Below the pieces are notes generated by a model that had not been told where the DNA came from, ran no database searches, and was given only the letters and a program-made list of their open reading frames with translations. A stretch of DNA of 19,056 nt from Arcobacteraceae bacterium (GTDB lineage Bacteria; Campylobacterota; Campylobacteria; Campylobacterales; Arcobacteraceae). A program made the translations under genes and the position numbers. The DNA lies in NCBI GenBank assembly GCA_048268245.1, contig JBLWVX010000040.1, positions 1 to 19,056 of the forward strand, given 5' to 3'. This document shows, piece after piece, positions 6,898-18,105 of the stretch (its first letter is position 1; every line of letters starts with the position of its first letter).

Positions 6898-7695
6898 ATG
6901 TCAAAAGAAAAATTCGTAATATTTGGTAATCCAGTAGCTCACTCAAAATCACCACAAATGCAAAATGCAGGTTTTGAAGCATTAAACTATGATGGAGTAT
7001 ATGAAAAACATCATTTAGAAGATGGAGCAACTATAAAAACTACTTTTTTAGAAAACTCATATGAAGGAGCAAATATAACAGTTCCACATAAAGAGTTTGC
7101 ATATAAAAATGCCGATGAAGTAAGAGGTTTAGCAAACAAAATCCAAGCAGTAAACACATATATAAAAGAAAATGGAAAAATCATAGCATACAATACAGAT
7201 GCACCAGGCTTCTTAAAAGCAATAGAGTCTTTTGGAGAGATAAAAAATGTACTACTTTTAGGAGCGGGAGGAACAGCTAAAGCAATCGCCCTAGCCTTAC
7301 AGGAAAAAGGTATCAAAGTAACAGTTCTAAATAGAAGTGCAGGAAAACTAGAGTTTTTTAAAAATGAAGGTATTACTTCATACTCATGGGATGATTTCAA
7401 ACCAGAAGAGTATGACCTAGTTGTAAACTCAACAAGTGCAGGATTAAAAGATGAGTATCTACCATGCGACAAAGAAATCCTAGAACCTATCCTAAAGCAA
7501 GCTTCTTTCGCTTTTGACTGTGTATATGGAAAAATCACACCATTTTTAGCATTAGCTAAAGAGAATAGCTGTGAGATAAAAGACGGTGAAGACATGCTTT
7601 TATATCAAGGTGTCTTGGCGTTCGAATTATTTACGGGTCATAAAGCCGATAATACGGTAATAGAAGCAATGAGAAAAGGTTTAAAAGGAGAATAA
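6898..7695 (+). CDS. aroE: Shikimate dehydrogenase; last 34 codons lie within the att junction
   Basis: GNPVAHSKSP, GANITVPHK, AVNT, NTDAPGF, GAGGTA, NRS, DGEDMLLYQG. Confidence 0.97.
   Translation: MSKEKFVIFGNPVAHSKSPQMQNAGFEALNYDGVYEKHHLEDGATIKTTFLENSYEGANITVPHKEFAYKNADEVRGLANKIQAVNTYIKENGKIIAYNTDAPGFLKAIESFGEIKNVLLLGAGGTAKAIALALQEKGIKVTVLNRSAGKLEFFKNEGITSYSWDDFKPEEYDLVVNSTSAGLKDEYLPCDKEILEPILKQASFAFDCVYGKITPFLALAKENSCEIKDGEDMLLYQGVLAFELFTGHKADNTVIEAMRKGLKGE
7589..7599 (+). repeat. attL core AAGACATGCTT
   Basis: Identical to 17999-18009; near-palindromic; similarity stops immediately upstream. Confidence 0.85.
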
Positions 7696-7710
7696 AAAGT
7701 TCTTCTTTTC
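7683..7710 (+). terminator. Probable terminator overlapping the aroE stop
   Basis: AAAAGGAGAA-TAAAAAG-TTCTTCTTTT hairpin; equivalent hairpin at the other aroE tail. Confidence 0.5.
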
Positions 7711-7727
7711 TAGCCTATATCTAGCTA
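7709..7727 (+). repeat. Putative integrase arm-type sites (left)
   Basis: TCTAGCCTATATCTAGCTA matches TCTAGCCTATTTCTAGTTA at 17855-17873 (17/19). Confidence 0.75.
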
Positions 7728-7793
7728 GATATGGAATAAAATCTTTTTGTTAATTTTAATTTACTTTAAATATAATAAACAAAAGGATTATTA

Positions 7794-7973
7794 ATGCTAC
7801 TAATAAGTGAAAAAAAACTTATCTCTTTATTTAAAAAATATGAATCTTTCAAAAAGATTTTTCATTTAGGAAAAAAAATAAAATATGAAGAATGGAAAGA
7901 TTTACCACTTGATGAAAATTTCCCTACAAATAAAATTTTAGAAGAAAAAAAGGATAAAAACAAATGTCATTAA
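7794..7973 (+). CDS. Small hypothetical protein, 59 aa (not in ORF track)
   Basis: MLLISEKKLISLFKKYESFKKIFHLGKKIKYEEWKDLPLDENFPTNKILEEKKDKNKCH*; RBS AAAAGGA 7781-7787; TATAAT 7771-7776; overlaps next start. Confidence 0.65.
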   Translation: MLLISEKKLISLFKKYESFKKIFHLGKKIKYEEWKDLPLDENFPTNKILEEKKDKNKCH

Positions 7974-8179
7974 GTCTTTATACACAAATAGAAGAGTTTA
8001 CAAAAAATTATAAAAAAGATCTTTGGAAAGAATTACTAAAAGAGAAAAAAGTTCAGGAATATATAGATAATCAAGTAACCATGATAGAAAATGAACTAAA
8101 AGGCTATTTAGATATGGGTTATTATGAAAATGAAGCTATGGAAATTATTAGAGCTGAATATATGAACCCTTCAAATTAG
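7964..8179 (+). CDS. Small hypothetical protein, 71 aa (loosely TnpV/DUF1896-like)
   Basis: RBS AAGGA; helical acidic protein ending GYYENEAMEIIRAEY. Family resemblance is weak and from memory. Confidence 0.65.
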   Translation: MSLSLYTQIEEFTKNYKKDLWKELLKEKKVQEYIDNQVTMIENELKGYLDMGYYENEAMEIIRAEYMNPSN

Positions 8180-8188
8180 GAGAACTAT

Positions 8189-8548
8189 ATGTTAAAAAAA
8201 TACCCTTATGAAAGAAAAGAGATATTTGATTATGATGAATATATCAAATTTATGGAAAGTAAAAAAGTAAGGCATGGAAAAAATAGAACAAATACATTAT
8301 TAGATTTTGTTGATGAAGAAACTCATGCAATGCTATTAAAAAAATGTGCTTTAGACCTAAATAAATTTGATCCTACTCCACCTGAAATAGATAAACATCT
8401 AAATTTTACAACAAGAGTATTAATAGAATTACTAGAGAAATATCCTGATGATGAAGATGTTAAAGAAATTTCTAAAGAAGAAAACACAAAAGAGAGATGT
8501 TCAACTAACTGGTATGAAAAATTTGGATACAAATATACTAATCTTTAA
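8189..8548 (+). CDS. Hypothetical protein, 119 aa
   Basis: RBS AGGAG; third gene of a compact operon. Confidence 0.75.
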   Translation: MLKKYPYERKEIFDYDEYIKFMESKKVRHGKNRTNTLLDFVDEETHAMLLKKCALDLNKFDPTPPEIDKHLNFTTRVLIELLEKYPDDEDVKEISKEENTKERCSTNWYEKFGYKYTNL

Positions 8549-8755
8549 TTTAATTAATATTAAAATTTGATAAGAGAAAGAGATAAAGCTATTTTATCCT
8601 ACTAGTTGTAACTTGTATTTTCTGAGGATATAAATTATGACTATATCTCACAAAAATTAACCTTTAACAGCTAATTAAAGGCAACAGTAACAGAATTCTA
8701 TTGCTTAGGGCTTTCTCAGCCCTAACATATACAAAACTAAACTTTTATATATTAT

Positions 8756-8890
8756 AAGCGTACTAAAACGAGAACTTTTCTAAATTATAAACCTTATGAA
8801 CTTTACAAACTCCCTAAAATTGGCATATTTAAAATCAGAGATTAAAAAATTTATGTATTTTAATGGCTAGTTTCTCATTTTAGTACGCTT
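8756..8890. repeat. 19-bp inverted repeat pair
   Basis: AAGCGTACTAAAACGAGAA (8756-8774) and TTCTCATTTTAGTACGCTT (8872-8890), one mismatch. Confidence 0.85.
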
Positions 8891-8933
8891 TAAAATTTTT
8901 TAAATACTAATCCTCAGTGCCATATACAATCTC

Positions 8934-8962
8934 TTGTAATTGTAATTTAAAATTGATACAAT
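8934..8962 (+). promoter_or_regulatory. Sigma70-type promoter
   Basis: TTGTAA (8934-8939), 17 bp, TACAAT (8957-8962) with extended TG. Confidence 0.6.
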
Positions 8963-8968
8963 TATAGC

Positions 8969-9115
8969 AATGGAAGATACAAGGTCTCCCTTGTACCTTT
9001 TGGTTTTTAATATAATGGTAGTGCGAATACCATTAAAACCATTACTATAATGAGTAATCTCAAAGTGGTGTACTCCTTTCGGGGAGTCGCCCACTACTGC
9101 ACCCAAAGCTTTTTA
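8969..9115 (+). ncRNA. Candidate small structured RNA
   Basis: Four adjacent hairpins downstream of the promoter, the last capped by TTCG; T-run at 9110-9114. Confidence 0.45.
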
Positions 9116-9173
9116 TGTTGTAAAAATTGAACCTGTTATCCTAATTACTTTTATAAGAATGTCCAAAAAAATC

Positions 9174-10571
9174 CTATCTTTTTTGAAAATTGTTTCTCTC
9201 ATCATAAACTGGAACTATTTCTATATCTCTCCAGTCTGTAAAAGGTTTTTTATTTTGTTCATAAGTAGAATTTGTCTTTTTTTCTTGAGTAAGACTTGTA
9301 AACTGTTTAGAATAAAAATCTCCTATACTTTTTAAAGCTTTTAATAGTCTTTTGATACTTTGCTCGTTTTTATTGCTTTTCTTCTTATATAGGCTATTAA
9401 AGTCATTTATAAAGGCATTTGAATTAATCTCTTGCTTTTTCCCAAGTAATGTTTTCTTTTCATAACTGTTTTTTCTAATAATCATCATTAGTTCATCTTC
9501 TTCAATTTGTAAATTATTACTCTCTTGAGTAGATAACTCTTCTAATGCTTTGATTAATTCAGGATCTTCAAAAATCTTCTCTATCTCTTTCATTTTAGAA
9601 TTAATATTGAATATAACATCTTGATACATCTCTTTTGATTCTTGTTGATCTTTTAGATCATGTTCTAGTTTTGAATTTACATCTTTTTGAGTTAAAACTT
9701 CTTTTCTTAAATCTTTTAAAACTTCAAGCATTTTTGAACTCTCTAACTTCTCATTTCTTATTTGATTTTTTAGATCTTTATTTACAGCTTCAACCCTTGC
9801 ATAATCTTCTCTAATAGCTTTGTTTAACTGTAATTCTGCTCTTAGTTTTTTAATTTCATCTTGTAGATCTTTTTGTTTTGCATATTGGGTTTGATTTTCT
9901 TGCTCTTTTTGTTTTCTATATACTCTATGATGAACACCTTTTTTATCATTTATTTTAACTTTTCTATCTCCAATTTGAACTGTATGATAGCTGCTCTTTT
10001 TACCTCTTTGTATATCTGGAACATACTTTTTAGAGATATCCCAAATGTTATCTTGTAACTGGCTAAAATATGTTTTCTTCCAATTTTTTCTAACCATCTC
10101 CCCGTTTTTATCTATATTGTCAAATAAAAAGTGAATATGTCTATTAATCTTTTCATTTGAATCTTCATCAATATGCCCCTCATGATTATGATAAGCCCAA
10201 TGTCTAACTTTTGTATTATTCTCTTTTTCAAATTTAGAAACAAAGTCATTTATTATATTTACAATATCTTCATTTGATATCTCAACATCAGTTCCAACAA
10301 TCAACATACCCTCTTCGATTTTAACTGCATCACTTCTTAACTTTCTTTTTTTATCTAAATTTTCTGCATATCTTTGTTCAGCTTCTTTCTCCCAGTTCTT
10401 AAAATCTTCATTTAGTTTTCTATAATCTGTATATGCTTTTGATTGTATAATCTCTGTTGCATCCTTCAACCAATAATTAGCTTTTTTCATAGCACTATTA
10501 TGTGCTAGATTTGCAGGTGTAGGAGGTGGATTTTTTCTAGGTCTTATTTTGACTGCATTACAATTCGCCAC
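9174..10571 (-). CDS. MOBV (Mob/Pre)-like relaxase with coiled-coil C-terminus
   Basis: LAHN, LRSDAV, HNHEGH...RHIHFLF (HxxE..HUH). Likely start is GTG 10571 behind RBS AAGGAG, not 10604. Confidence 0.8.
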   Translation of the reverse strand: MANCNAVKIRPRKNPPPTPANLAHNSAMKKANYWLKDATEIIQSKAYTDYRKLNEDFKNWEKEAEQRYAENLDKKRKLRSDAVKIEEGMLIVGTDVEISNEDIVNIINDFVSKFEKENNTKVRHWAYHNHEGHIDEDSNEKINRHIHFLFDNIDKNGEMVRKNWKKTYFSQLQDNIWDISKKYVPDIQRGKKSSYHTVQIGDRKVKINDKKGVHHRVYRKQKEQENQTQYAKQKDLQDEIKKLRAELQLNKAIREDYARVEAVNKDLKNQIRNEKLESSKMLEVLKDLRKEVLTQKDVNSKLEHDLKDQQESKEMYQDVIFNINSKMKEIEKIFEDPELIKALEELSTQESNNLQIEEDELMMIIRKNSYEKKTLLGKKQEINSNAFINDFNSLYKKKSNKNEQSIKRLLKALKSIGDFYSKQFTSLTQEKKTNSTYEQNKKPFTDWRDIEIVPVYDERNNFQKR

Positions 10572-10605
10572 GCTAATTCTCCTTTCTTCTTTTTCATAAA
10601 TCAAA

Positions 10606-10810
10606 GAGTTAAAATCGTAAGATTTTTACTCGCCCAATTTTCTCACCCCTCGTGGGTAGAAAACTCATAAACACTAAAATTCATTTTTAGGGTGGAGTGA
10701 GTAACTCACTCCACTATAACTTGAAAGTTATCGTTCGCTCGAAAACTGACCCACGAGGGGATACAGTTTTTTTATGTGGCTTCGCCACTCTTATTTTTGA
10801 AAAATAAGAT
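10606..10810. other. Putative oriT / single-strand-origin region
   Basis: About eight abutting hairpins upstream of the relaxase, including perfect GTGGAGTGAG-TAA-CTCACTCCAC (10692-10714) and ATAACTT-GA-AAGTTAT (10716-10731). Confidence 0.65.
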
Positions 10811-10834
10811 GTTTTGATGTTCGTGGGTTTGGAA

Positions 10835-11278
10835 TTAAAGCTTCCATTTTCCACTTACTTTTTTTAGATATATAGAGTTACAATTGTTAGGGGATTCAAA
10901 ATTTTGATATGCAAAAATAGTAAAGAATACTAAAGCTCTTTTTCTCCATTGATCATACTTAATATATTTAGTTTTGAAAGAGTAAGAGAAGTTAGTTTGT
11001 TTATTATAAAGGCTGTTTCTATCTCTTTTTTCAACTCTATTTTTTATACTCCAGAATTGTGCTATTTTTCTATTTATTGAGTTAGTGTCTTTATCTGCAC
11101 TATATGGTCTTAGTTTTTCAATGATCTTATCTCTAGTTTTATAATCATCATGAGATTTCATTTTAAATACTTCTTGTAACCAAATTTGAACTACATCTTG
11201 AGCTTGTGTTTTATCTTCTGCGAATGAAACTGTTAGTATATTCATTAGTATTGCTGTTATTAGTATTAGTTTTTTCAT
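10835..11278 (-). CDS. Exported protein with signal peptide (entry-exclusion candidate by position)
   Basis: MKKLILITAILMNILTVSFA signal; C-terminal YLKKVSGKWKL typical of NTF2-like/DUF4878-type folds; RBS AAGGA. Confidence 0.75.
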   Translation of the reverse strand: MKKLILITAILMNILTVSFAEDKTQAQDVVQIWLQEVFKMKSHDDYKTRDKIIEKLRPYSADKDTNSINRKIAQFWSIKNRVEKRDRNSLYNKQTNFSYSFKTKYIKYDQWRKRALVFFTIFAYQNFESPNNCNSIYLKKVSGKWKL

Positions 11279-11293
11279 TGTTTTTTTCCTTTT

Positions 11294-13489
11294 TTATGCG
11301 TTAAATGTGTATCTTGATTTATACTGATTAGATAAATCATCTGCTAATTGTGTTGTATTTGAAAGATTGTCTAAACCTATCATTTTGAATACGTAATCGG
11401 CTCCATGAACTATTGTTTTCCAAACGATATAAATTGATAAGAAAATAGCAAATATTGAGATTAGTTCTTTAACTATATACGAAAGTAAAGTTATTACAAA
11501 ACCACTTGTACTATTTTGCAATAATGCAAACTGCTCTAATGAGAAGACTATGATATTATCATGTACAAAGCTATAAAAGAACATAGCAAGATACACTGAT
11601 ACAACTATAAGAACTGGTCTTAAGAAAATAGTTATCCCAGTAACAAGGAAGTCTATAATTTTTCGGCTCTGTCCCGTTGAAAGTGCAAATGCAACCACAA
11701 AAGGAGATATAAGAACATAAATTATAAGTTCATATAAATATAAAATAATTGCCAGTATCGTTGCTATTATTCCAGTTACTAAAGGTAGAAATTTTAAAAT
11801 ATATGTCACTATATAAGCTGTTAGTGCAAGACTTAAAAATGGTGTTGCAATTGTTCCTAAAATTCCAGTTGCCGTGCCTATTACTGGTATTTGGCTAATA
11901 AGAGAAGATAAGCCTGATCCTAAATTCATGCTCATAGAAAAAATATCTCCTGCTCCAGGAAAAATCAAGTAGATAACCTTTGCAAAGCTCTCACCAAGCA
12001 TGTCTTGGGCATATTGTGTACTGTTTGACAATAGATCTTCTAGCCAGTTATTGCTTTCATCTGTTGGATTTATTTGAGCTTTTCTAATCTTTACTTTTAC
12101 TTCTTCATTCAAAGGCGGATTTTCATTTGAACTAATAAAACTTAACTCTGTTAAGACTTTAACAGTTGGAACTAAGATAGAAGAATACCAGCCCATTTCA
12201 TCACTTCTTCGATCTAATAATTCTGAAACTTTATCTAATCTATTTGTGATTTCTGCATTTTGATATGCTGATTTAATTCTCTCCAAATGATATTCATATT
12301 GTGTTTTTTGAGTGTAGGCAACTTTAAGTCTTTTTTCTACATTTCTACAACCTTTTATAGTTGTTGTATCATTTGCTCTTAGATATTGTTCTAATTCATT
12401 GATTTTTTCTTCATCAGTTATCTGATAAGTAGTTAATTCAGGAAATTTTTCGATACAAACTTGAAGAGCTGTCTCATAGTTAATTATTACCTGTTCTTCT
12501 TTTTTTAAAAGTGCTTTTAAGTTAGCTTCTTCTTCAACTCCACTTGCTCCCGTTGCATTGTAGCTATATTTTACAAATTGCTTTAATGCCACCTTATTTG
12601 CCTTATCTGCCATACTTGTACTTTCAAATATAAAGTACTTAGCTATTAGTTGGAACATACTGTCAGAGTAATTGTTATCTACTTTTATGGGTAAAAAGAA
12701 TATTAAAAAAGCTATTATGATAATAGATAATCGCATTGTGAACGGCTCTTCGTAGGATAAAGCCTTTTTTTCTAATTTTTTTAAGCCCAGTTTTGCGACA
12801 TATAGAACCATAAAAAATAGTGATAAAAAAACAACTAAATAGGAAACTATATACTCGTAAGATTGGTCTAAATAGTAGAATAAATCAACAAAATAAGTTA
12901 AGTTTTGAGTGTTTAAGCTGTCAATTTGATTCAATAATAAATTTGGTTCTGATGTATCAGCTGAATCAGGACTATAAACAGCATTGGGATTTGCTTTCAC
13001 AAGTGTTCCACTTGCTGTCGTATCTTGAAGATTAATCATATCTTGATCTAGTGTTGCAAGTCCTGATATAAATTTACTCATAGTTGTTTTTGAACTATCA
13101 TAATTATCAATATTTGCGTAGTTAGAATAGTTGTTATTTGTTTTACTTGCGAGTGTTGAATCTGCATAGTTTGCTTTAATTGATTCTTGTTCTTTTACAC
13201 AATCAATATCTAAAGTATTAGCCATAATTGATAATTTTCTATTTTCTTGTTCTTGGTCTACTGCAAAGGCATAGAATACTTCGCATGAAGTAAGACCTGA
13301 TTTACTGTCAAAATCAATCATTTTTGTCTTATATTTAGTAGTGTCAAGAACTCTACAAGATGGCTCACAAATTCCATCTGATGGACTTTGATAAGGGCTT
13401 AGAAAAAAGTTATTGTCTAAGTCTGCTCTTACACTTGTATTAGCATAAAGATTTATGAAAAAAAGGAAGAAAAATATTAAAACTTTCAT
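11294..13489 (-). CDS. DotA/TraY-like (VirB6-analogous) polytopic membrane protein
   Basis: Signal peptide MKVLIFFFLFFINLYA from ATG 13489 (ATGA overlap), soluble domains and many C-terminal TMs with SPFVVAF...TIFLRPVLIVVS, resembling the TraY/DotA LRPxLxV motif. Confidence 0.65.
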   Translation of the reverse strand: MKVLIFFFLFFINLYANTSVRADLDNNFFLSPYQSPSDGICEPSCRVLDTTKYKTKMIDFDSKSGLTSCEVFYAFAVDQEQENRKLSIMANTLDIDCVKEQESIKANYADSTLASKTNNNYSNYANIDNYDSSKTTMSKFISGLATLDQDMINLQDTTASGTLVKANPNAVYSPDSADTSEPNLLLNQIDSLNTQNLTYFVDLFYYLDQSYEYIVSYLVVFLSLFFMVLYVAKLGLKKLEKKALSYEEPFTMRLSIIIIAFLIFFLPIKVDNNYSDSMFQLIAKYFIFESTSMADKANKVALKQFVKYSYNATGASGVEEEANLKALLKKEEQVIINYETALQVCIEKFPELTTYQITDEEKINELEQYLRANDTTTIKGCRNVEKRLKVAYTQKTQYEYHLERIKSAYQNAEITNRLDKVSELLDRRSDEMGWYSSILVPTVKVLTELSFISSNENPPLNEEVKVKIRKAQINPTDESNNWLEDLLSNSTQYAQDMLGESFAKVIYLIFPGAGDIFSMSMNLGSGLSSLISQIPVIGTATGILGTIATPFLSLALTAYIVTYILKFLPLVTGIIATILAIILYLYELIIYVLISPFVVAFALSTGQSRKIIDFLVTGITIFLRPVLIVVSVYLAMFFYSFVHDNIIVFSLEQFALLQNSTSGFVITLLSYIVKELISIFAIFLSIYIVWKTIVHGADYVFKMIGLDNLSNTTQLADDLSNQYKSRYTFNA

Positions 13490-13989
13490 TTTATTTTCTC
13501 CTCTTTGCAATAGAAATAGCTTACTGTTTTATTGTCTTTTAGAATTTGAAAATATTCTCTTCGTAAGTCAGTAAGAAAACTATAAAAAAAGTATGCTATA
13601 AGTGCGTATTTTACGATGTAACCGCTATTTTCAAAGCCAAGCATATATGAAAAAAGTAAGAACCAAACAACAGTCGCTATGAAACTCTTGAAATCATCAT
13701 ATTTTTTATTAATTAATATTCCTAAAGTTGTTACTGTAAAGCCTGTAATTACGTATGTTGTCATGTTTTGTAACTCATATACAGTTACGAAATATGAGAT
13801 AAAAATCAAAACGGGTAGATACTTAAGTATTAAGAAACTTGTCTTATTCGTAAGTTTTGAAAAATTGTAAATGTTTGAACCGTTTTCTTTTTCAAAAATA
13901 ATTTCATTTTTATCTTGATTAACTAAAGCATCTGTAGTGATAGTGAAAAATGGGAAGAATCTTGTTTTTGTGTAATTTATTTCTTGCAT
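13486..13989 (-). CDS. Integral membrane protein (~4 TM)
   Basis: 167 aa with hydrophobic core; coupled to the downstream gene and 1 bp from the upstream one. Confidence 0.8.
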   Translation of the reverse strand: MQEINYTKTRFFPFFTITTDALVNQDKNEIIFEKENGSNIYNFSKLTNKTSFLILKYLPVLIFISYFVTVYELQNMTTYVITGFTVTTLGILINKKYDDFKSFIATVVWFLLFSYMLGFENSGYIVKYALIAYFFYSFLTDLRREYFQILKDNKTVSYFYCKEEKIK

Positions 13990-13990
13990 T

Positions 13991-14248
13991 TCATACCCCT
14001 ACTTTTGCGTTAAATCCCGACAGATAAGGGTCTAATATTCTAATACGAGCGATATCTTTTTTTAAAAATTTACGACTACAAAGATTTAATTCGCTCCAAT
14101 TTTTTTTTGATTTTCTCCAAGTTTGAATCGTGCTTTTCGATCGTGCGTAAAGCTCTGCAACTTCTTCTATAGAGATATATTCTGTATTATTATTTGTTTT
14201 TTCATGTAGAATTTGAATTTCTTTTTCAATTTTTTCATTGATTTTCAT
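13991..14248 (-). CDS. Excisionase-like HTH DNA-binding protein
   Basis: YISIEEVAELYARSKSTIQTWRK...RKFLKKDI; RBS AAAGGA. Confidence 0.8.
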   Translation of the reverse strand: MKINEKIEKEIQILHEKTNNNTEYISIEEVAELYARSKSTIQTWRKSKKNWSELNLCSRKFLKKDIARIRILDPYLSGFNAKVGV

Positions 14249-14302
14249 AATTATATAATCCTTTTAATTATTTAAAAAGAATTGAATAATCAAGCAAAGT
14301 AA

Positions 14303-14330
14303 AAAAGTTAATAAAATTTTATTAACTTTT
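14303..14330. promoter_or_regulatory. Perfect 28-bp palindrome abutting a + strand extended -10
   Basis: AAAAGTTAATAAAA|TTTTATTAACTTTT followed by TGGTATAAT (14330-14338). Confidence 0.65.
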
Positions 14331-14529
14331 GGTATAATAAGCCTGATTAAAGCCTTTCTCGGGATTTAATTTTCCTCTTTTTTTAAGCTTGGCGGCAGAA
14401 AAAAGAGGAATTCTTACATATTTCTACTTATATTCATTAGTCTCCTTTTATATTAAAATAAGTTATTTTATTTCAAATTGTAGTGAATTCATACTTACAT
14501 TAAACTTAATAAAATCCCCATTCTATCGG

Positions 14530-14616
14530 TGTTATAAATTGATATGTTTTAAAAAGGGGTATCTATTTAGAATCTAGTTTTTTGTTATTATTTGATATGT
14601 TTTAAAAAGGGGTATC
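14530..14616 (+). repeat. 34-bp direct repeat x2, 53-bp period
   Basis: 14530-14563 and 14583-14616; identical 25-bp core TTGATATGTTTTAAAAAGGGGTATC. Confidence 0.9.
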
Positions 14617-14765
14617 CAACTAAAATAAAATTTTAAAATTAATTTATTTTTTTAAGTTTTTGCTATTTCGAATTATATCCAACCAATATCCAATTATATT
14701 CAATTGTGTCGAATTGATTTAAAGATTGCCTATTTTATGGGCTTTGAAAAAATCCTAAACTTTTA

Positions 14766-14794
14766 TTGTATTACTTTTTGTTTTGCACTAGAAT
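14766..14794 (+). promoter_or_regulatory. Sigma70-type promoter of the rightward HTH gene
   Basis: TTGTAT, 17 bp, TAGAAT. Confidence 0.6.
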
Positions 14795-14840
14795 TGTCTG
14801 TAGAAATTAAATACATTAAATAACACATGAAAGGTATTCA

Positions 14841-15107
14841 ATGGAAAGGTATTCAATGAGTATTAACGAGGAATCAATATTTAATTCAATGCTACAAGCC
14901 CTAGTATTCCGCCATGGTGTGTTGCTAAACTCGAAACAATGTGCAAAAGTACTAGGTATAAGTACTAGAACGCTAGATGAAAGAAGAAAAGCATCAAAGG
15001 ACTGCCCTGCATATATTCAGAATGGAGATCGATTAATCGGCTATCCCGCTCAAAATATTGTGCAATATCAAATAAATAAAGCTAAACAAAGCATTAGAAT
15101 TGCGTAA
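14841..15107 (+). CDS. AlpA/Xis-like HTH protein (alternative start 14856)
   Basis: LLNSKQCAKVLGISTRTLDERR...CPAYIQNGDRLIGY. Confidence 0.85.
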   Translation: MERYSMSINEESIFNSMLQALVFRHGVLLNSKQCAKVLGISTRTLDERRKASKDCPAYIQNGDRLIGYPAQNIVQYQINKAKQSIRIA

Positions 15108-15186
15108 AAAAACTGTGAAAATCTCATTAAAAGGAGGTCTTAGCAGTTTTTTTTGAAGTTTGGCGACTCAAAACTGCTAAAAAGAT
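15106..15186 (-). ncRNA. Candidate antisense RNA overlapping an attenuator
   Basis: Minus-strand promoter TTGATT (15221-15216), 17 bp, TATAAT (15198-15193); stem-loop with CGCCAA in the loop; ends in a U-run at ~15106. Confidence 0.6.
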
Positions 15187-15289
15187 AGCTACATTATAAC
15201 TAATATCTAAATTAAAATCAAATTTTATCTTTCTTTTTTTTCAAAAAAAATCAACTTAAGTGTTGAGGATAAAGTAATGTCCAAAAAAA

Positions 15290-16008
15290 CTATAAAGCGG
15301 TAGAGTGTAAGGACTGCACAGTAAGCGAAATCTTGCGATAAAACAAAAACTTGCATAAGGTGAGAATGAACTTACCGAAAACAATCACAGCCAAATAAGA
15401 GACCAAATCAGCACCGTGTGAGGAATGGAAAGAGGTACGATTCACGGTGGAGATGCCCGTTCTACTATTTTATAGTAGCAAGGACATTCCTATATGTTTA
15501 CCAGTTAATATATAAAACAGAGGTTTTTAAATTAGTGATAATACTAATACTGGATTAATTAAATATGTAGGTTATTAGATAAGGGGAACCGTCTAATGTA
15601 ATTGTGTCGTAGATTAAGAGCTGAACAATAATCTACTTAAGTCGTAGCGTAGTGTCCTGCAAAAGCCGAGTCATTTGCACATTATAGACTAACTTGTCCT
15701 GTACTATTTTGTTAAATCCAAAGTAGTACAAGGGCAAGTTGTCTCCACTTCGGAGCCATTCCCTACCAAATCATTTTGACATAGCCAAAGGCAAACGGCA
15801 AGATTAAATCAAAAGAGTGGAGATAACTGAGACAAAAAAGGTGGAAGATTTAAATAAAAATCTAATACAATTTGATTATAGAAAATTAATTCTATGTTTA
15901 AAACCATCGGAGTTCGTTTTGGACGTTAAGCTAACGGTTACATTTTGTAAAGCATTAGCATACACCCGTAAAAATATAGTAGTTTTTGGTCTACTTCTTT
16001 TTTGTTTC
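15290..16008 (+). ncRNA. Candidate large structured ncRNA (~700 nt), unknown class
   Basis: No credible ORF; GC-richer than flanks; more than a dozen nested local and long-range helices whose mismatches are G-U on the + strand; terminal hairpin plus U-tract. Boundaries approximate. Confidence 0.6.
15978..16008 (+). terminator. Possible intrinsic terminator
   Basis: AGTAG-TTTTTGGT-CTACT followed by TCTTTTTTGTTT. Confidence 0.45.
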
Positions 16009-16020
16009 TAATTAATGAAT

Positions 16021-16302
16021 CTATAAAATTGAAATATTTAATTTTTTTCCTAAAGCAGTTGTTGCACTTTCAAGTGTACTAAGAGTCAAAGAACTGTTAT
16101 CAGGATTTAAAAGTCTATTAACAACAGCTCTACTTGTATTCATCATTTCTGCCATTTTTGTTTTTGTGATTTTTTGAGCTTTCATTTCTTGTTCTAATTG
16201 ATAAGCAATAACTCTTTTTATAGCTATATCATTTGTTTCTTCATAAATACCATCTTCTTTTAAAAACTCATTAAAATCACTACCAATATGTTTATTGTTC
16301 AT
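16021..16302 (-). CDS. XRE-family HTH antitoxin (HigA-like)
   Basis: MNNKHIGSDFNEFLKEDG...ITKTKMAEMMNTSRAVVNRLLNP...SLTLSTL; start 16302 overlaps the toxin stop. Confidence 0.88.
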   Translation of the reverse strand: MNNKHIGSDFNEFLKEDGIYEETNDIAIKRVIAYQLEQEMKAQKITKTKMAEMMNTSRAVVNRLLNPDNSSLTLSTLESATTALGKKLNISIL

Positions 16303-16657
16303 CACATTCTCCAGTATCAATTTTTTTTCTTCTTTCTATTGCTGTATTTTTTTCTTTATCAGGCATTTTTTGGTCTTTTTTGATAAACCCATGTAAAAGT
16401 ATCATACAATCTTTATATATTGTAAAAACAACTCTTGCAATTTTATCACTTGCCAATTTACTTCTTACTTCCCAAAGTTTATATTTACTATCAACTTTTC
16501 TAACTAAAGGCATACCTATAGGAAAACCAAACTCAACTGTTTGGATGTCTGAACCAATAATCTTCCTATCTTCTTTATCAAGAGTTAATAACCATTCTTT
16601 AACTGGTTCATTTCCTGATTCAGTTTTATAAAATCTTACAGCGATTATTTTTTCCAT
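16292..16657 (-). CDS. RelE/ParE-superfamily toxin (HigB/Gp49-like)
   Basis: FYKTESGNEPVKEWL, GFPIGMPLVR, LWEVRS, ILLHGFIKK; toxin-first gene order. Confidence 0.9.
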   Translation of the reverse strand: MEKIIAVRFYKTESGNEPVKEWLLTLDKEDRKIIGSDIQTVEFGFPIGMPLVRKVDSKYKLWEVRSKLASDKIARVVFTIYKDCMILLHGFIKKDQKMPDKEKNTAIERRKKIDTGECDEQ

Positions 16658-16680
16658 AAAAAACCTTATTTATTTTGTCT

Positions 16681-16709
16681 ATTGTATCAAAATTGATACA
16701 CTTTGTCAA
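16681..16709 (-). promoter_or_regulatory. TA operon promoter with operator palindrome
   Basis: TTGACA, 17 bp, TACAAT on the minus strand; palindrome TGTATCAA-AA-TTGATACA (16683-16700) overlaps the spacer and -10. Confidence 0.85.
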
Positions 16710-16712
16710 TAC

Positions 16713-17813
16713 TTACATCAAACTCTTAATCAAATTATCCACATGTTTTTCCCCACTACTCTTGTTTAATTTTGCATATCTCATAGTTGCATTTATATCA
16801 TTATGATTCATAAGTTTTTTGATTGTAAGTATAGGTGTTTCATTTATGGCTAAATGACTTGCAAAAGTATGTCTTAATGTATGAATTGTAACTTTATTTA
16901 ATGGTTCTGTTCCCTCAGGGTTAAAAAGGATGTCAAATATAGGTTGAAGTTTTCTATAATAATATTGATTTGTATAATTTTGATTTTTTGTATTCTTAAA
17001 TAAAAAATCATCTTTTTTTATATTTGAATCAGATATGAACTGCTCTATTTCTTTTTTTAACTCTTCATTTAAAAATCCATAATATTCACTATTATTCTTG
17101 AAGTCAAACAGTCTTATAGATCCATTTGATTTAATATCTGATGATTTTATATTACAAATAGTTTGTAATCTTCCACCAGTTGCTAAACCCAACATTACAA
17201 AGTAATATAATGATCTATCATTTTTAATCGTTTCTCTTAACCTCTTAATCTCATCAATTTCTAAATACCTTAATCTTGTATTATCAACTTTTAATTTTTT
17301 AACCCCTTTACATGGGTTCTTTTCAGTAACATCATTTTCTATCGCCCAATTAAAAATTCCACCAACTTGCTGAACTATAAAATTAACTGTTGCAGGCATT
17401 AAATCTTTTTCAATTTCCACTTGAAAATTTTCAATATCAGCTTTTGTAATAGTTTTTAGAGGCTTTGAACCTATAAAGTGTTCTTTGATTCTATTTTCTA
17501 CTCTTGCTCTAGTTTTTTTATTCTGCTTATTATGTAGTTCTTTATAATCATAAAACTGTTTTGCAATTTCTAATAGTGTTTGAGACTCTTTTTTTACTGC
17601 AATATGTGGTAGATCTTCACCTAATCTAATTTTAGATGTAATTTCATTTCTTTTTTGATGACAGAAAGCCTCTCTAATACCCTCACTATGAAGCCCTATT
17701 TTCTTCCATACATCTTTTTTATTTTCTTTATATGTGATATAATAAGATTTATCCCCATTTTGAAGTTCTTGAAAATAAACTCCAGTATATCTTTTGGATT
17801 TTTGTCTAGCCAT
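16713..17813 (-). CDS. Tyrosine recombinase / integrase
   Basis: Catalytic R (TGGRL), K (DFKNN), HTLRH, H (LMNHND), Y (TMRYA); N-terminal arm-binding region. Likely start ATG 17813 (MARQK) after AAGGTG. Confidence 0.95.
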   Translation of the reverse strand: MARQKSKRYTGVYFQELQNGDKSYYITYKENKKDVWKKIGLHSEGIREAFCHQKRNEITSKIRLGEDLPHIAVKKESQTLLEIAKQFYDYKELHNKQNKKTRARVENRIKEHFIGSKPLKTITKADIENFQVEIEKDLMPATVNFIVQQVGGIFNWAIENDVTEKNPCKGVKKLKVDNTRLRYLEIDEIKRLRETIKNDRSLYYFVMLGLATGGRLQTICNIKSSDIKSNGSIRLFDFKNNSEYYGFLNEELKKEIEQFISDSNIKKDDFLFKNTKNQNYTNQYYYRKLQPIFDILFNPEGTEPLNKVTIHTLRHTFASHLAINETPILTIKKLMNHNDINATMRYAKLNKSSGEKHVDNLIKSLM

Positions 17814-17873
17814 TATTTTTAACACCTTTATTTCTAGCTGATATATAAAACTTATCTAGCCTATTTCTAGTTA
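17805..17873 (+). repeat. Putative integrase arm-type sites (right)
   Basis: TCTAGY copies at 17805, 17833, 17855 and 17866; same motif as at 7709 and 7720. Confidence 0.7.
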
Positions 17874-18000
17874 TATATTGTATTTAATTGTTTCTTAATA
17901 CATACAAATGTAAAATCTAATTTTTAAAAAGCTCTTATAAAAGCCTATTTTGTGGCTAAATGTAAGTTAATGTATTTAGATGTAAATTAGAGATATAAAA

Positions 18001-18105
18001 GACATGCTTCTTTTCCAAGGTGTTTTAGCATTTGAATACTTCACAAAACAAAAAGTTAGTGATGATGTGGTTGAAGCTATGAGAAAAGGGTTGAAAGGAG
18101 AGTAA
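18001..18105 (+). pseudogene. aroE: Displaced aroE 3' fragment at attR
   Basis: Translates to DMLLFQGVLAFEYFTKQKVSDDVVEAMRKGLKGE*, 25/34 identical to the expressed AroE C-terminus. Confidence 0.93.

Follow-up and report, generated by a model that had tools for sequence, protein, structure and literature searches.

A conserved non-coding element with a strand-specific fold on integrase islands of Arcobacteraceae

The window analyzed here, a 19,056-nt stretch of an Arcobacteraceae genome, was established to carry on its + strand a non-coding element whose type 1 body (15296..15844, ~549 nt; alignment A2) folds into several domains held together by compensatory changes, recurs across the family and lies on a chromosomal island. 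We consider the chances about even that this element acts as a folded RNA, a ~550-nt multi-domain non-coding RNA cassette that would be a backbone module of integrative (ICE/IME-type) islands. A preliminary description of the sequence had proposed an undescribed large structured non-coding RNA, which is well supported by covariation, the G-U bias of one strand, the non-coding nature of the region and the lack of an Rfam match. The limits it gave, 15290-16008, needed correction: the structured body is 15296-15844, with a conserved leader from 15130, and 15849-16010 is a separate module found alone elsewhere.

Fold, strand and coding potential of the body

The + strand folded at -174.7 kcal/mol against -145.5 ± 5.2 kcal/mol in 20 shuffles (z -5.6), in agreement with the nested + strand helices first described, and the - strand gave a z of -3.8. 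Alignment A2 comprised 30 distinct copies with a pairwise identity of 62.5-97.5% (median 81.9%). From the 30-copy alignment RNAalifold alone returned 101 pairs, with compensatory changes in 31. The merged model contained 108 pairs; 97.1% of its cells were paired, and in 34 pairs both sides had changed. None of 500 shuffles scored as high on any of five measures, and a control in which partners were slid by 1-3 columns gave 9-13 double-changed pairs as against 34. The homologue and covariation check proposed at the outset thus came out in favor of the fold, with compensatory changes above controls as is the general criterion for a structured RNA. Among 3230 cells there were 254 G-U and 31 A-C cells, so the early remark that mismatches were mainly G-U on the + strand was accurate, and several of the G-U pairs were invariant. 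Because G-U exceeds A-C and some G-U pairs never vary, the + strand is the folded strand, although this bias alone is no proof of RNA since folded single-stranded DNA also tolerates G-T wobbles. The loops included a GNRA-type GGAA cap in 30/30 copies, C-GAAA/GAGA/AAAA-G in place of an A/U loop in 11/30 and a CUUCGG cap in 4/30.

The core spans GCGGTAGAG (15297) to GGTGG (15844), and all parts given here are on the + strand. The 5' domain (15296..15461) is made up of P1-P4, helices 1-4 of the model: P1 (15296-15300/15457-15461), P2 (15305-15311/15350-15356; three pairs with double changes), P3 (15359-15364/15371-15376; four) and P4 (15407-15418/15443-15454; two). The junction GACCAAATCAG between helices of this domain was the same in 30/30 copies, and an invariant 26-mer, GGTACGATTCACNNTGGAGATGCCCG (15434..15459), covers the apex and 3' strand of P4 and the start of the 3' strand of P1. 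Hairpin P5 lies between the 5' domain and the central multibranch domain (15483..15608; P6-P8, helices 7-13), where P6 (15483-87/15604-08) closes both P7 (15489-15571), which has three hairpins inside it, and the GGAA-capped P8 (15573-15598), and where AARGGGARCCGTC was present in 30/30 copies. The P9 hairpin GTAGATTA/TAATCTAC (15609..15636; helix 14) has a conserved 12-nt loop, with its motif in 26/30 copies, and the long hairpin P10 (15695..15736; helices 15-16) has six double-changed pairs, the conserved loop GTTAAAT and the sequence TTGTTAAAT in 27/30 copies. P11 (15737..15828, arms 15737-15750/15815-15828; helix 17) surrounds a swappable insert domain whose versions are mutually unrelated (19 of the 30 copies have variant A, 7 have B and 4 have C). 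The core is closed by a purine-rich invariant 3' tail, ACTGAGACAAAAAAGGTGG (15826..15844; ACUGAGAYAAAAAAGGUGG), which reads ACTGAGAN-AAARAAG(T)GTGG in 28 of the 30 copies, AACGATGACAAAAAAGGTGG in the other two and GAGATAAAAAAGATGG or GAGAGAAAAAAGATGG in copies from a second family.

Seven of the pairings named in the preliminary description were retained in this model and three were not. GGTGAG/CTTACC, CACCGTG/CACGGTG, CCTATATGTTTA/TAAATATGTAGG, the GGAA-capped stem and the P9 stem were all kept with compensatory changes, as was the long stem at 15695-15711/15719-15736. No support was obtained for the long-range helix AATCTTGC (15329-36) with GCAAGATT (15798-805), for GCAAGGACATT (15478-88) with AGTGTCCTGC (15651-60), where GACAT 15483-87 pairs with GTGTC 15604-08 instead, or for a pseudoknot between 15422-28 and 15756-62; in these three, 64% of cells were paired and 143-374 of 500 shuffles were as good.

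The longest open frames in the 30 copies were 41-78 aa and shifted in frame, variability by codon phase was flat (0.120/0.129/0.118) and 521 of 562 gap runs were not multiples of 3, which bears out the statement that about 700 nt are free of a credible ORF. Neither a conserved frame nor three-base periodicity, the test applied for a protein-coding gene, was found. Short ORFs of 42-64 aa overlap 15290-16008 in the window (none is longer than 64 aa) and could be taken as remnants of a decayed protein gene, but this candidate was rejected on the lack of a kept frame and of codon periodicity and on indels that are mostly non-triplet; chance palindromes in AT-rich DNA were rejected on covariation far above controls, and we regard both as refuted. 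An Rfam 15 scan of the window at gathering cut-offs, which included ROOL, GOLLD, OLE, HEARO, raiA, RNase P, tmRNA, group I/II introns and RNAI, gave no match; at E up to 10 the region 14000-16400 gave only five chance-level matches of 19-26 bits, and the loci of six relatives gave tRNAs only. The Rfam check therefore placed the element in no family and left its novelty intact. ARAGORN found no tRNA or tmRNA gene in the window, and the GGTAGAG and T-loop-like UACGA within the element are a resemblance to tRNA only.

Relatives, leader and a second body

BLAST searches of 184 genomes of the same family (Arcobacteraceae) with 15200-16020 as query gave near full-length matches in 16 of the 183 other genomes, spanning several genera, at 73-88% identity and E 5e-60 or better. 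Some match was seen in 71/184 genomes, those beyond the 16 being short, AT-rich and low-scoring, and an additional divergent copy was present in the Arcobacteraceae genome G124, which is not among the 16. A metagenome search with the invariant 26-mer yielded 26 contigs, of which 13 hold new full-length copies, 2 are duplicates and 11 are truncated at a contig end; these copies match the 26-mer by design since they were found with it, and the 26-mer occurs in all 16 BLAST-found genome copies independently of that search. No copy of the element was found in a plasmid collection of 72,556 records or in phage and viral-contig collections, and every copy is chromosomal or on a metagenome contig. 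The covariance model covers 89 nt of the core only and may therefore miss distant relatives; it found one copy among 140 other-family genomes in an order-wide sample of 151 and copies in 2/151 genomes of that second Campylobacterales family.

Homology with the window starts at 15129-15246 and ends at 15844-15875. The body measures 529-581 nt across copies, from CGGTAGA to GGTGG, and conservation ends at GGTGG (15844) in 30/30 copies. Just 3' of ...GAGAYAAAAAAGGTGG it breaks off and variable cargo starts; columns 3' of the tail could not be aligned, and similarity was lost at the tail end in every alignment. Many metagenome assemblies break within or at the edge of the element (L052, L061, L064, L065, L067, L070, L071), as would be expected of a conserved repeat flanked by strain-specific DNA. 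One contig filed under a Candidatus Paceibacteria MAG (L036) has a core identical to the Arcobacteraceae genome copy L002, and its placement there is probably a binning error.

The leader consists of two parts, both on the + strand. Part 1 (15130..15180) opens with a Shine-Dalgarno-like box, AAAGGAGG (15130-15137), followed by hairpin H0 (arms 15140-15150/15170-15180), the loop of which carries the invariant motif AGTTTGGCGAC (15157-15167). The H0 loop AGUUUGGCGAC was invariant on about six different stem sequences, two of those from the second family, and GTTTGGCGAC occurred once, on the same strand and 5' of the element, at 58 of 80 loci. A peptide encoded in H0 was rejected as neither start codon nor frame is conserved, and a kissing interaction of the H0-loop UUUGGC with GCCAAA 15388-94 was rejected as the other-family copy has GCAGAA at the partner site but an unaltered loop. 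Part 2 (15251..15282) has two small hairpins, TCAACTTAAGTGTTGA and GGATAAAGTAATGTCC (z -3.1, 200 shuffles), which are kept in alignments A1/A2. The strict leader pattern was found once per genome in 15/184 genomes of the family.

A small HTH gene lies 5' of H0 at six loci, the window included; most of the other loci, termed class II, have a promoter and a three-stem RNA motif in its place. The sigma70-like class II promoter (TTTACA/TTGTAA-17-TATACT/TATAAT, + strand) was present at 16/18 loci, ~395-452 nt 5' of the element, with the hexamers kept and the spacer varying. The three-stem junction behind it, ~115 nt, has 40 pairs with 95.8% of cells paired and 10 double-changed pairs among 16 sequences. 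It was seen at about 9300-9480 in L039, and also in L040-L045, L049, L033 and L050 among others, ~400 nt 5' of the large element, and is absent from the window.

Parts of 15231-15848 are covered by contigs from the wastewater RNA libraries X5, X10 and X13, which come from three studies. This is weak support for expression because these are assembled contigs of mixed communities in which DNA carry-over is possible, and no transcript ends were seen. The same libraries did not cover 14255-15160, a flank specific to the window's variant; neither this nor the contig ends at 15848 was used as evidence, because contigs break where variants diverge and the RNA is common to many strains. A promoter scan of the window gave 9 sites, not above the 12.0 ± 3.4 in shuffles, a scan for an intrinsic terminator 3' of the tail found none (not above shuffles), and no conserved antisense promoter was detected by a scan, which remained at the shuffled background, or by reading of A2.

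The copies from the second family together with that of G124 form a divergent type 1 subfamily of ~650-740 nt (tail end minus GGTAGAG-like start), which keeps the core motifs and the H0 loop, the latter on another stem, and has a tail reading GAGA(T/G)AAAAAAG(A/G)TGG. Its members lie at L020:110-900, L077:1190-1895 and L078 (- strand), two of them from the other Campylobacterales family, and carry an extra insert (GCUGGCGUAGUUGUAUG...CCAGCGG). In three of the 15 genomes with the strict leader pattern (G057, G126, G127) the leader is followed by another large non-coding body, type 2. The type 2 loci (L023:1397-2100, L024:710-1400 and L026:1650-950 on the - strand) have a body of ~550 nt behind an SD-like box, H0 with the loop GTTTGGCGAC and TCAACTT..GTTGAGGATAAA hairpins, and leader part 2 is likewise kept 5' of this body. 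Type 2 has only AAGAGACC and a UGGCGUAGUGUAUG motif in common with type 1; it has no A-run tail, gave no Rfam match and adjoins a tRNA gene and an HsdM gene.

The islands that carry the element

The last 29 codons of aroE are present in the window in two versions, 7606-7695 and 18016-18105, which form a direct repeat (D1) of 70% identity across 90 nt and both translate to QGVLAFE..EAMRKGLKGE*. Between them, within 7606..18105, lies an island of ~10.3 kb (about 7696-18015). The preliminary description had spoken of a Rep-less element, with a rep gene to be expected at this place. A plasmid framing of this kind is not supported: the window is no plasmid but carries a chromosomal 10.3-kb island in the aroE 3' end, no plasmid, phage or viral-contig copy of the element was found, and the island cannot be called Rep-less because it holds, besides an integrase, several ORFs whose function is not assigned. 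A search for a further att copy, by which the window's island would fall into two elements, was negative.

The island contains a tyrosine integrase (16713..17825, - strand; Pfam PF00589, E 6.8e-24), a Gp49/HTH toxin-antitoxin pair, an AlpA-like gene and ORFs without assignment. The toxin-antitoxin cargo (16021..16657, - strand) is next to the 3' end of the element and convergent with it, with a Gp49/HigB-like toxin at 16292-16657 (PF05973, E 2.7e-16) and an HTH antitoxin at 16021-16320 (PF13744, E 2.5e-7). Directly 5' of the leader is the gene for a small HTH protein of 88 aa (14841..15107, + strand), which had weak Pfam and PHROG HTH matches and homologues 5' of the element in L038 (56% identity), L046 and L031. 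A 738-aa ORF (11294-13510, - strand) is 25% identical to an 801-aa ORF adjoining the element in L047; it had no match in Pfam, NCBIfam or PHROG, and its protein-atlas leads, to DotA/TraY-like conjugation membrane proteins (0.87-0.88) and TraG_N-like clusters, were weak and below 0.9. With respect to the integrase and the AlpA-738-aa operon, the cassette has opposite orientations in the window and in L047.

We mapped 16 loci and scanned 130 neighboring proteins. Intergenic gaps at carrier loci were 1.2-1.7 kb, the DNA 3' of the tail was unrelated between loci and its genes were mostly convergent with the element; across loci the cargo included type I RM, AbiE, ParE, Fic, Zeta and McrB-like genes. 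Because the genes downstream are variable and mostly convergent, the cassette is not a leader of these genes. Related integrases lay within 10 kb of the element at 7/16 mapped loci, and L040 and L045 had an integrase of a different family near it. Pfam identified conjugation and partition genes (NikA-like, ParA-like, VirB5-type T4SS, TrbL, TrwC) in L039, L045, L048 and L079, on the same strand as the element and 3' of it, and L040 had BLAST-cluster relatives of a ParA-like gene and a TraD/TrbC-like match far below cutoff. The order in L079 was integrase, Gp49, HTH, a 104-aa ORF, the element, two - strand ORFs, ParA-like and TrwC, and the folded strand was co-oriented with transfer-type operons in 7/8 loci. 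Three islands adjoin the same carB-Sua5-like core genes, with the element within ~300-750 nt of the junction; in L043, at ~6 kb the smallest of the three, the element is accompanied by nothing but AbiE, ParE, an HsdS fragment and an integrase.

Possible roles and known systems

The grounds for reading the element as a folded RNA are the promoter, the RNA-type loop caps, the conserved wobbles, the interchangeable bodies and the inversion of the cassette with respect to L047. If it does act in this way, the body at 15296-15844 (+) would be transcribed and expressed as a self-contained cassette behind the conserved leader, and the cassette would be a backbone module of islands with a tyrosine integrase, in Arcobacteraceae and in one further Campylobacterales family at the least. 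Part of these islands are full conjugative elements, and others hold only an integrase, toxin-antitoxin or defence cargo and the RNA. The RNA would then work in its folded state, through the many unpaired nucleotides that never vary, probably by binding a conserved host component, and would be neither an mRNA nor the leader of genes downstream nor a palindrome acting as DNA; a host partner is probable because no island protein but an integrase is constant. Its action may favor maintenance or spread of the island. Against this reading stand, besides the promoter and terminator scans of the window and the tolerance of folded single-stranded DNA for wobbles, that the retention of just this region and an integrase in minimal islands would have a simpler explanation in a cis-acting DNA site, and that a plain trans-acting RNA leaves the sharp 3' limit and the purine-rich tail unexplained.

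The last of these points is where an RNA serving as primer or origin would have its strength. ColE1 RNA II is ~550 nt long and its primer ends in an A run. Here the core is 529-581 nt and the invariant tail GAGAYAAAAAAGRTGG has an A6 run and a sharp limit in 30/30 copies and in the second family, and the purine-rich end could form a persistent RNA-DNA hybrid, be cut and prime synthesis by host polymerase into the cargo side, and an excised island would replicate without Rep in a ColE1-like manner. Minimal islands such as L043 lack a recognizable replication gene, an HTH gene or a promoter with a small structured RNA lies upstream as copy-control parts would, and ParA-like genes are present in L039 and L045 (Pfam), with BLAST-cluster relatives in L040, L033 and L079. 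We nevertheless hold such a primer to be unlikely: there were no matches in 72,556 plasmid records and no autonomous replicon, Rfam gave no RNAI match with the cut-off relaxed to E 10, a conserved antisense promoter was not detected, type 2 shares the leader but has no A-run tail, and the invariant loops and junctions have a tertiary-looking detail beyond what priming needs. Of the features that mark a ColE1-type replicon, neither an antisense RNA I nor residence on an autonomous plasmid was found, and to our knowledge such replicons occur in enterobacteria only. A function in single-stranded DNA, as a single-strand origin or a site for priming, perhaps with an oriT nick at H0 or at the 3' limit, for mobilization or rolling circle, would account for the element being, with the integrase, the only constant part of minimal islands, like an oriT, for an invariant H0 loop on varied stems, like nick-site hairpins, for a mosaic break at exactly one nucleotide and for a strand-specific fold, known single-strand origins being orientation-specific folded DNA. 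We think this improbable too, given the GNRA- and UUCG-type caps and conserved G-U pairs, the + strand promoter upstream in class II loci and a length of ~550 nt, two to three times that of known single-strand origins. In F and R388 the rule is that the coding strand of the transfer genes stays in the donor, and here the folded strand is that coding strand in 7/8 loci, with the window's cassette inverted relative to the backbone; single-strand origins would be ~150-300 nt of folded DNA on the displaced strand and would keep a fixed orientation to leading-strand synthesis. As a regulator in cis, the element would be the long structured 3' UTR that follows the HTH gene, or a transcript that controls convergent cargo or integrase expression as an antisense RNA or an insulator; this would fit a position directly behind the HTH gene in six loci, the convergence on - strand cargo in most loci and the lack of a terminator between element and cargo. 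The cargo is unrelated across loci, so there is no common cis target, non-coding modules replace the upstream gene in class II loci, and size and conservation of unpaired bases are above those of known attenuators; we therefore rate a cis-regulatory RNA as very improbable.

A more far-reaching proposal, which we regard as speculative and rather doubtful, is that the RNA would be the sole element-encoded factor besides the integrase for persistence or spread of minimal islands, either as a Rep-independent RNA-primed origin of excised elements, which would be the first such origin beyond ColE1-type plasmids, or through catalysis or self-assembly, the shared leader and interchangeable 550-nt bodies (type 1, type 2) being modular RNA 'genes' that set element identity or compatibility. 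We know of only about ten bacterial ncRNA classes above 500 nt with complex conserved folds, and each has given new biology or stays a puzzle. The present element offers unusually clean covariation, a defined setting on integrative and conjugative elements and a tractable minimal island of ~3-6 kb with the RNA, a toxin-antitoxin pair and an integrase, and for these reasons it may show what a large RNA does for mobile DNA; should the RNA supply replication or mobilization, islands without Rep or transfer genes would be seen differently.

ColE1 RNA II resembles the element as a structured ~550-nt RNA with a purine- or A-run end, and differs in that the element has no plasmid context, no RNA I and no sequence relation to it. 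TnpB/IscB omega RNAs likewise have a conserved scaffold that ends sharply at variable DNA, but no TnpB or IscB gene was nearby, the scaffold here is much larger, and the variable side is internal cargo here as against the flank of the element for omega RNAs. ROOL and GOLLD (RF03087, RF02033) share the 500-800 nt class, many branches, conserved unpaired bases and residence on mobile DNA, and form RNA-only complexes according to PMC12286853. There is no match to them in sequence or structure, however, and the element is also set apart by its fixed leader and by a 3' tail that does not vary; its hosts are Campylobacterales and its carriers integrase islands or conjugative elements, whereas theirs are Bacillota and relatives and prophages. 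Rolling-circle single-strand origins such as sso1 of ICEBs1, ~200 bp with three stem-loops (PMC4595007), are also non-coding and mobile with a strand-specific fold, but the element is two to three times larger and has RNA-type loops, an upstream promoter and an ill-fitting orientation to transfer genes.

No description of the 550-nt body was found in the published literature. Stav et al. 2019 (PMC6429828) report HRC-4 as a candidate without a name; it comes from an intergenic region of 1503 nt in Arcobacter sp. L (gaps at the carrier loci here are 1.2-1.7 kb) and has 14 examples in Arcobacter and environmental DNA in varying gene context. It is described as a small three-stem junction, which fits the class II module, absent from the window, and not the 550-nt body; the class II three-stem junction is probably the published HRC-4 candidate. 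At the HRC-4 coordinates (NC_017192.1/908385-909887) there was no nearby match among the BLAST matches listed.

Two further features were noted beside the element in the window. The separate module at 15849-16010 recurs as 110-160 nt at 71-85% identity in at least eight other loci of Arcobacteraceae, there without toxin-antitoxin genes and without the element; its folding is weak (z -0.6 on the +, -1.6 on the - strand), and a 64-aa GTG ORF that overlaps it is partly kept in two loci. The AlpA-like and HTH genes are divergent and 590 nt apart, and between them, at 14530-14634, lie two tandem 52-nt direct repeats of 83% identity, which look like operators or iterons.
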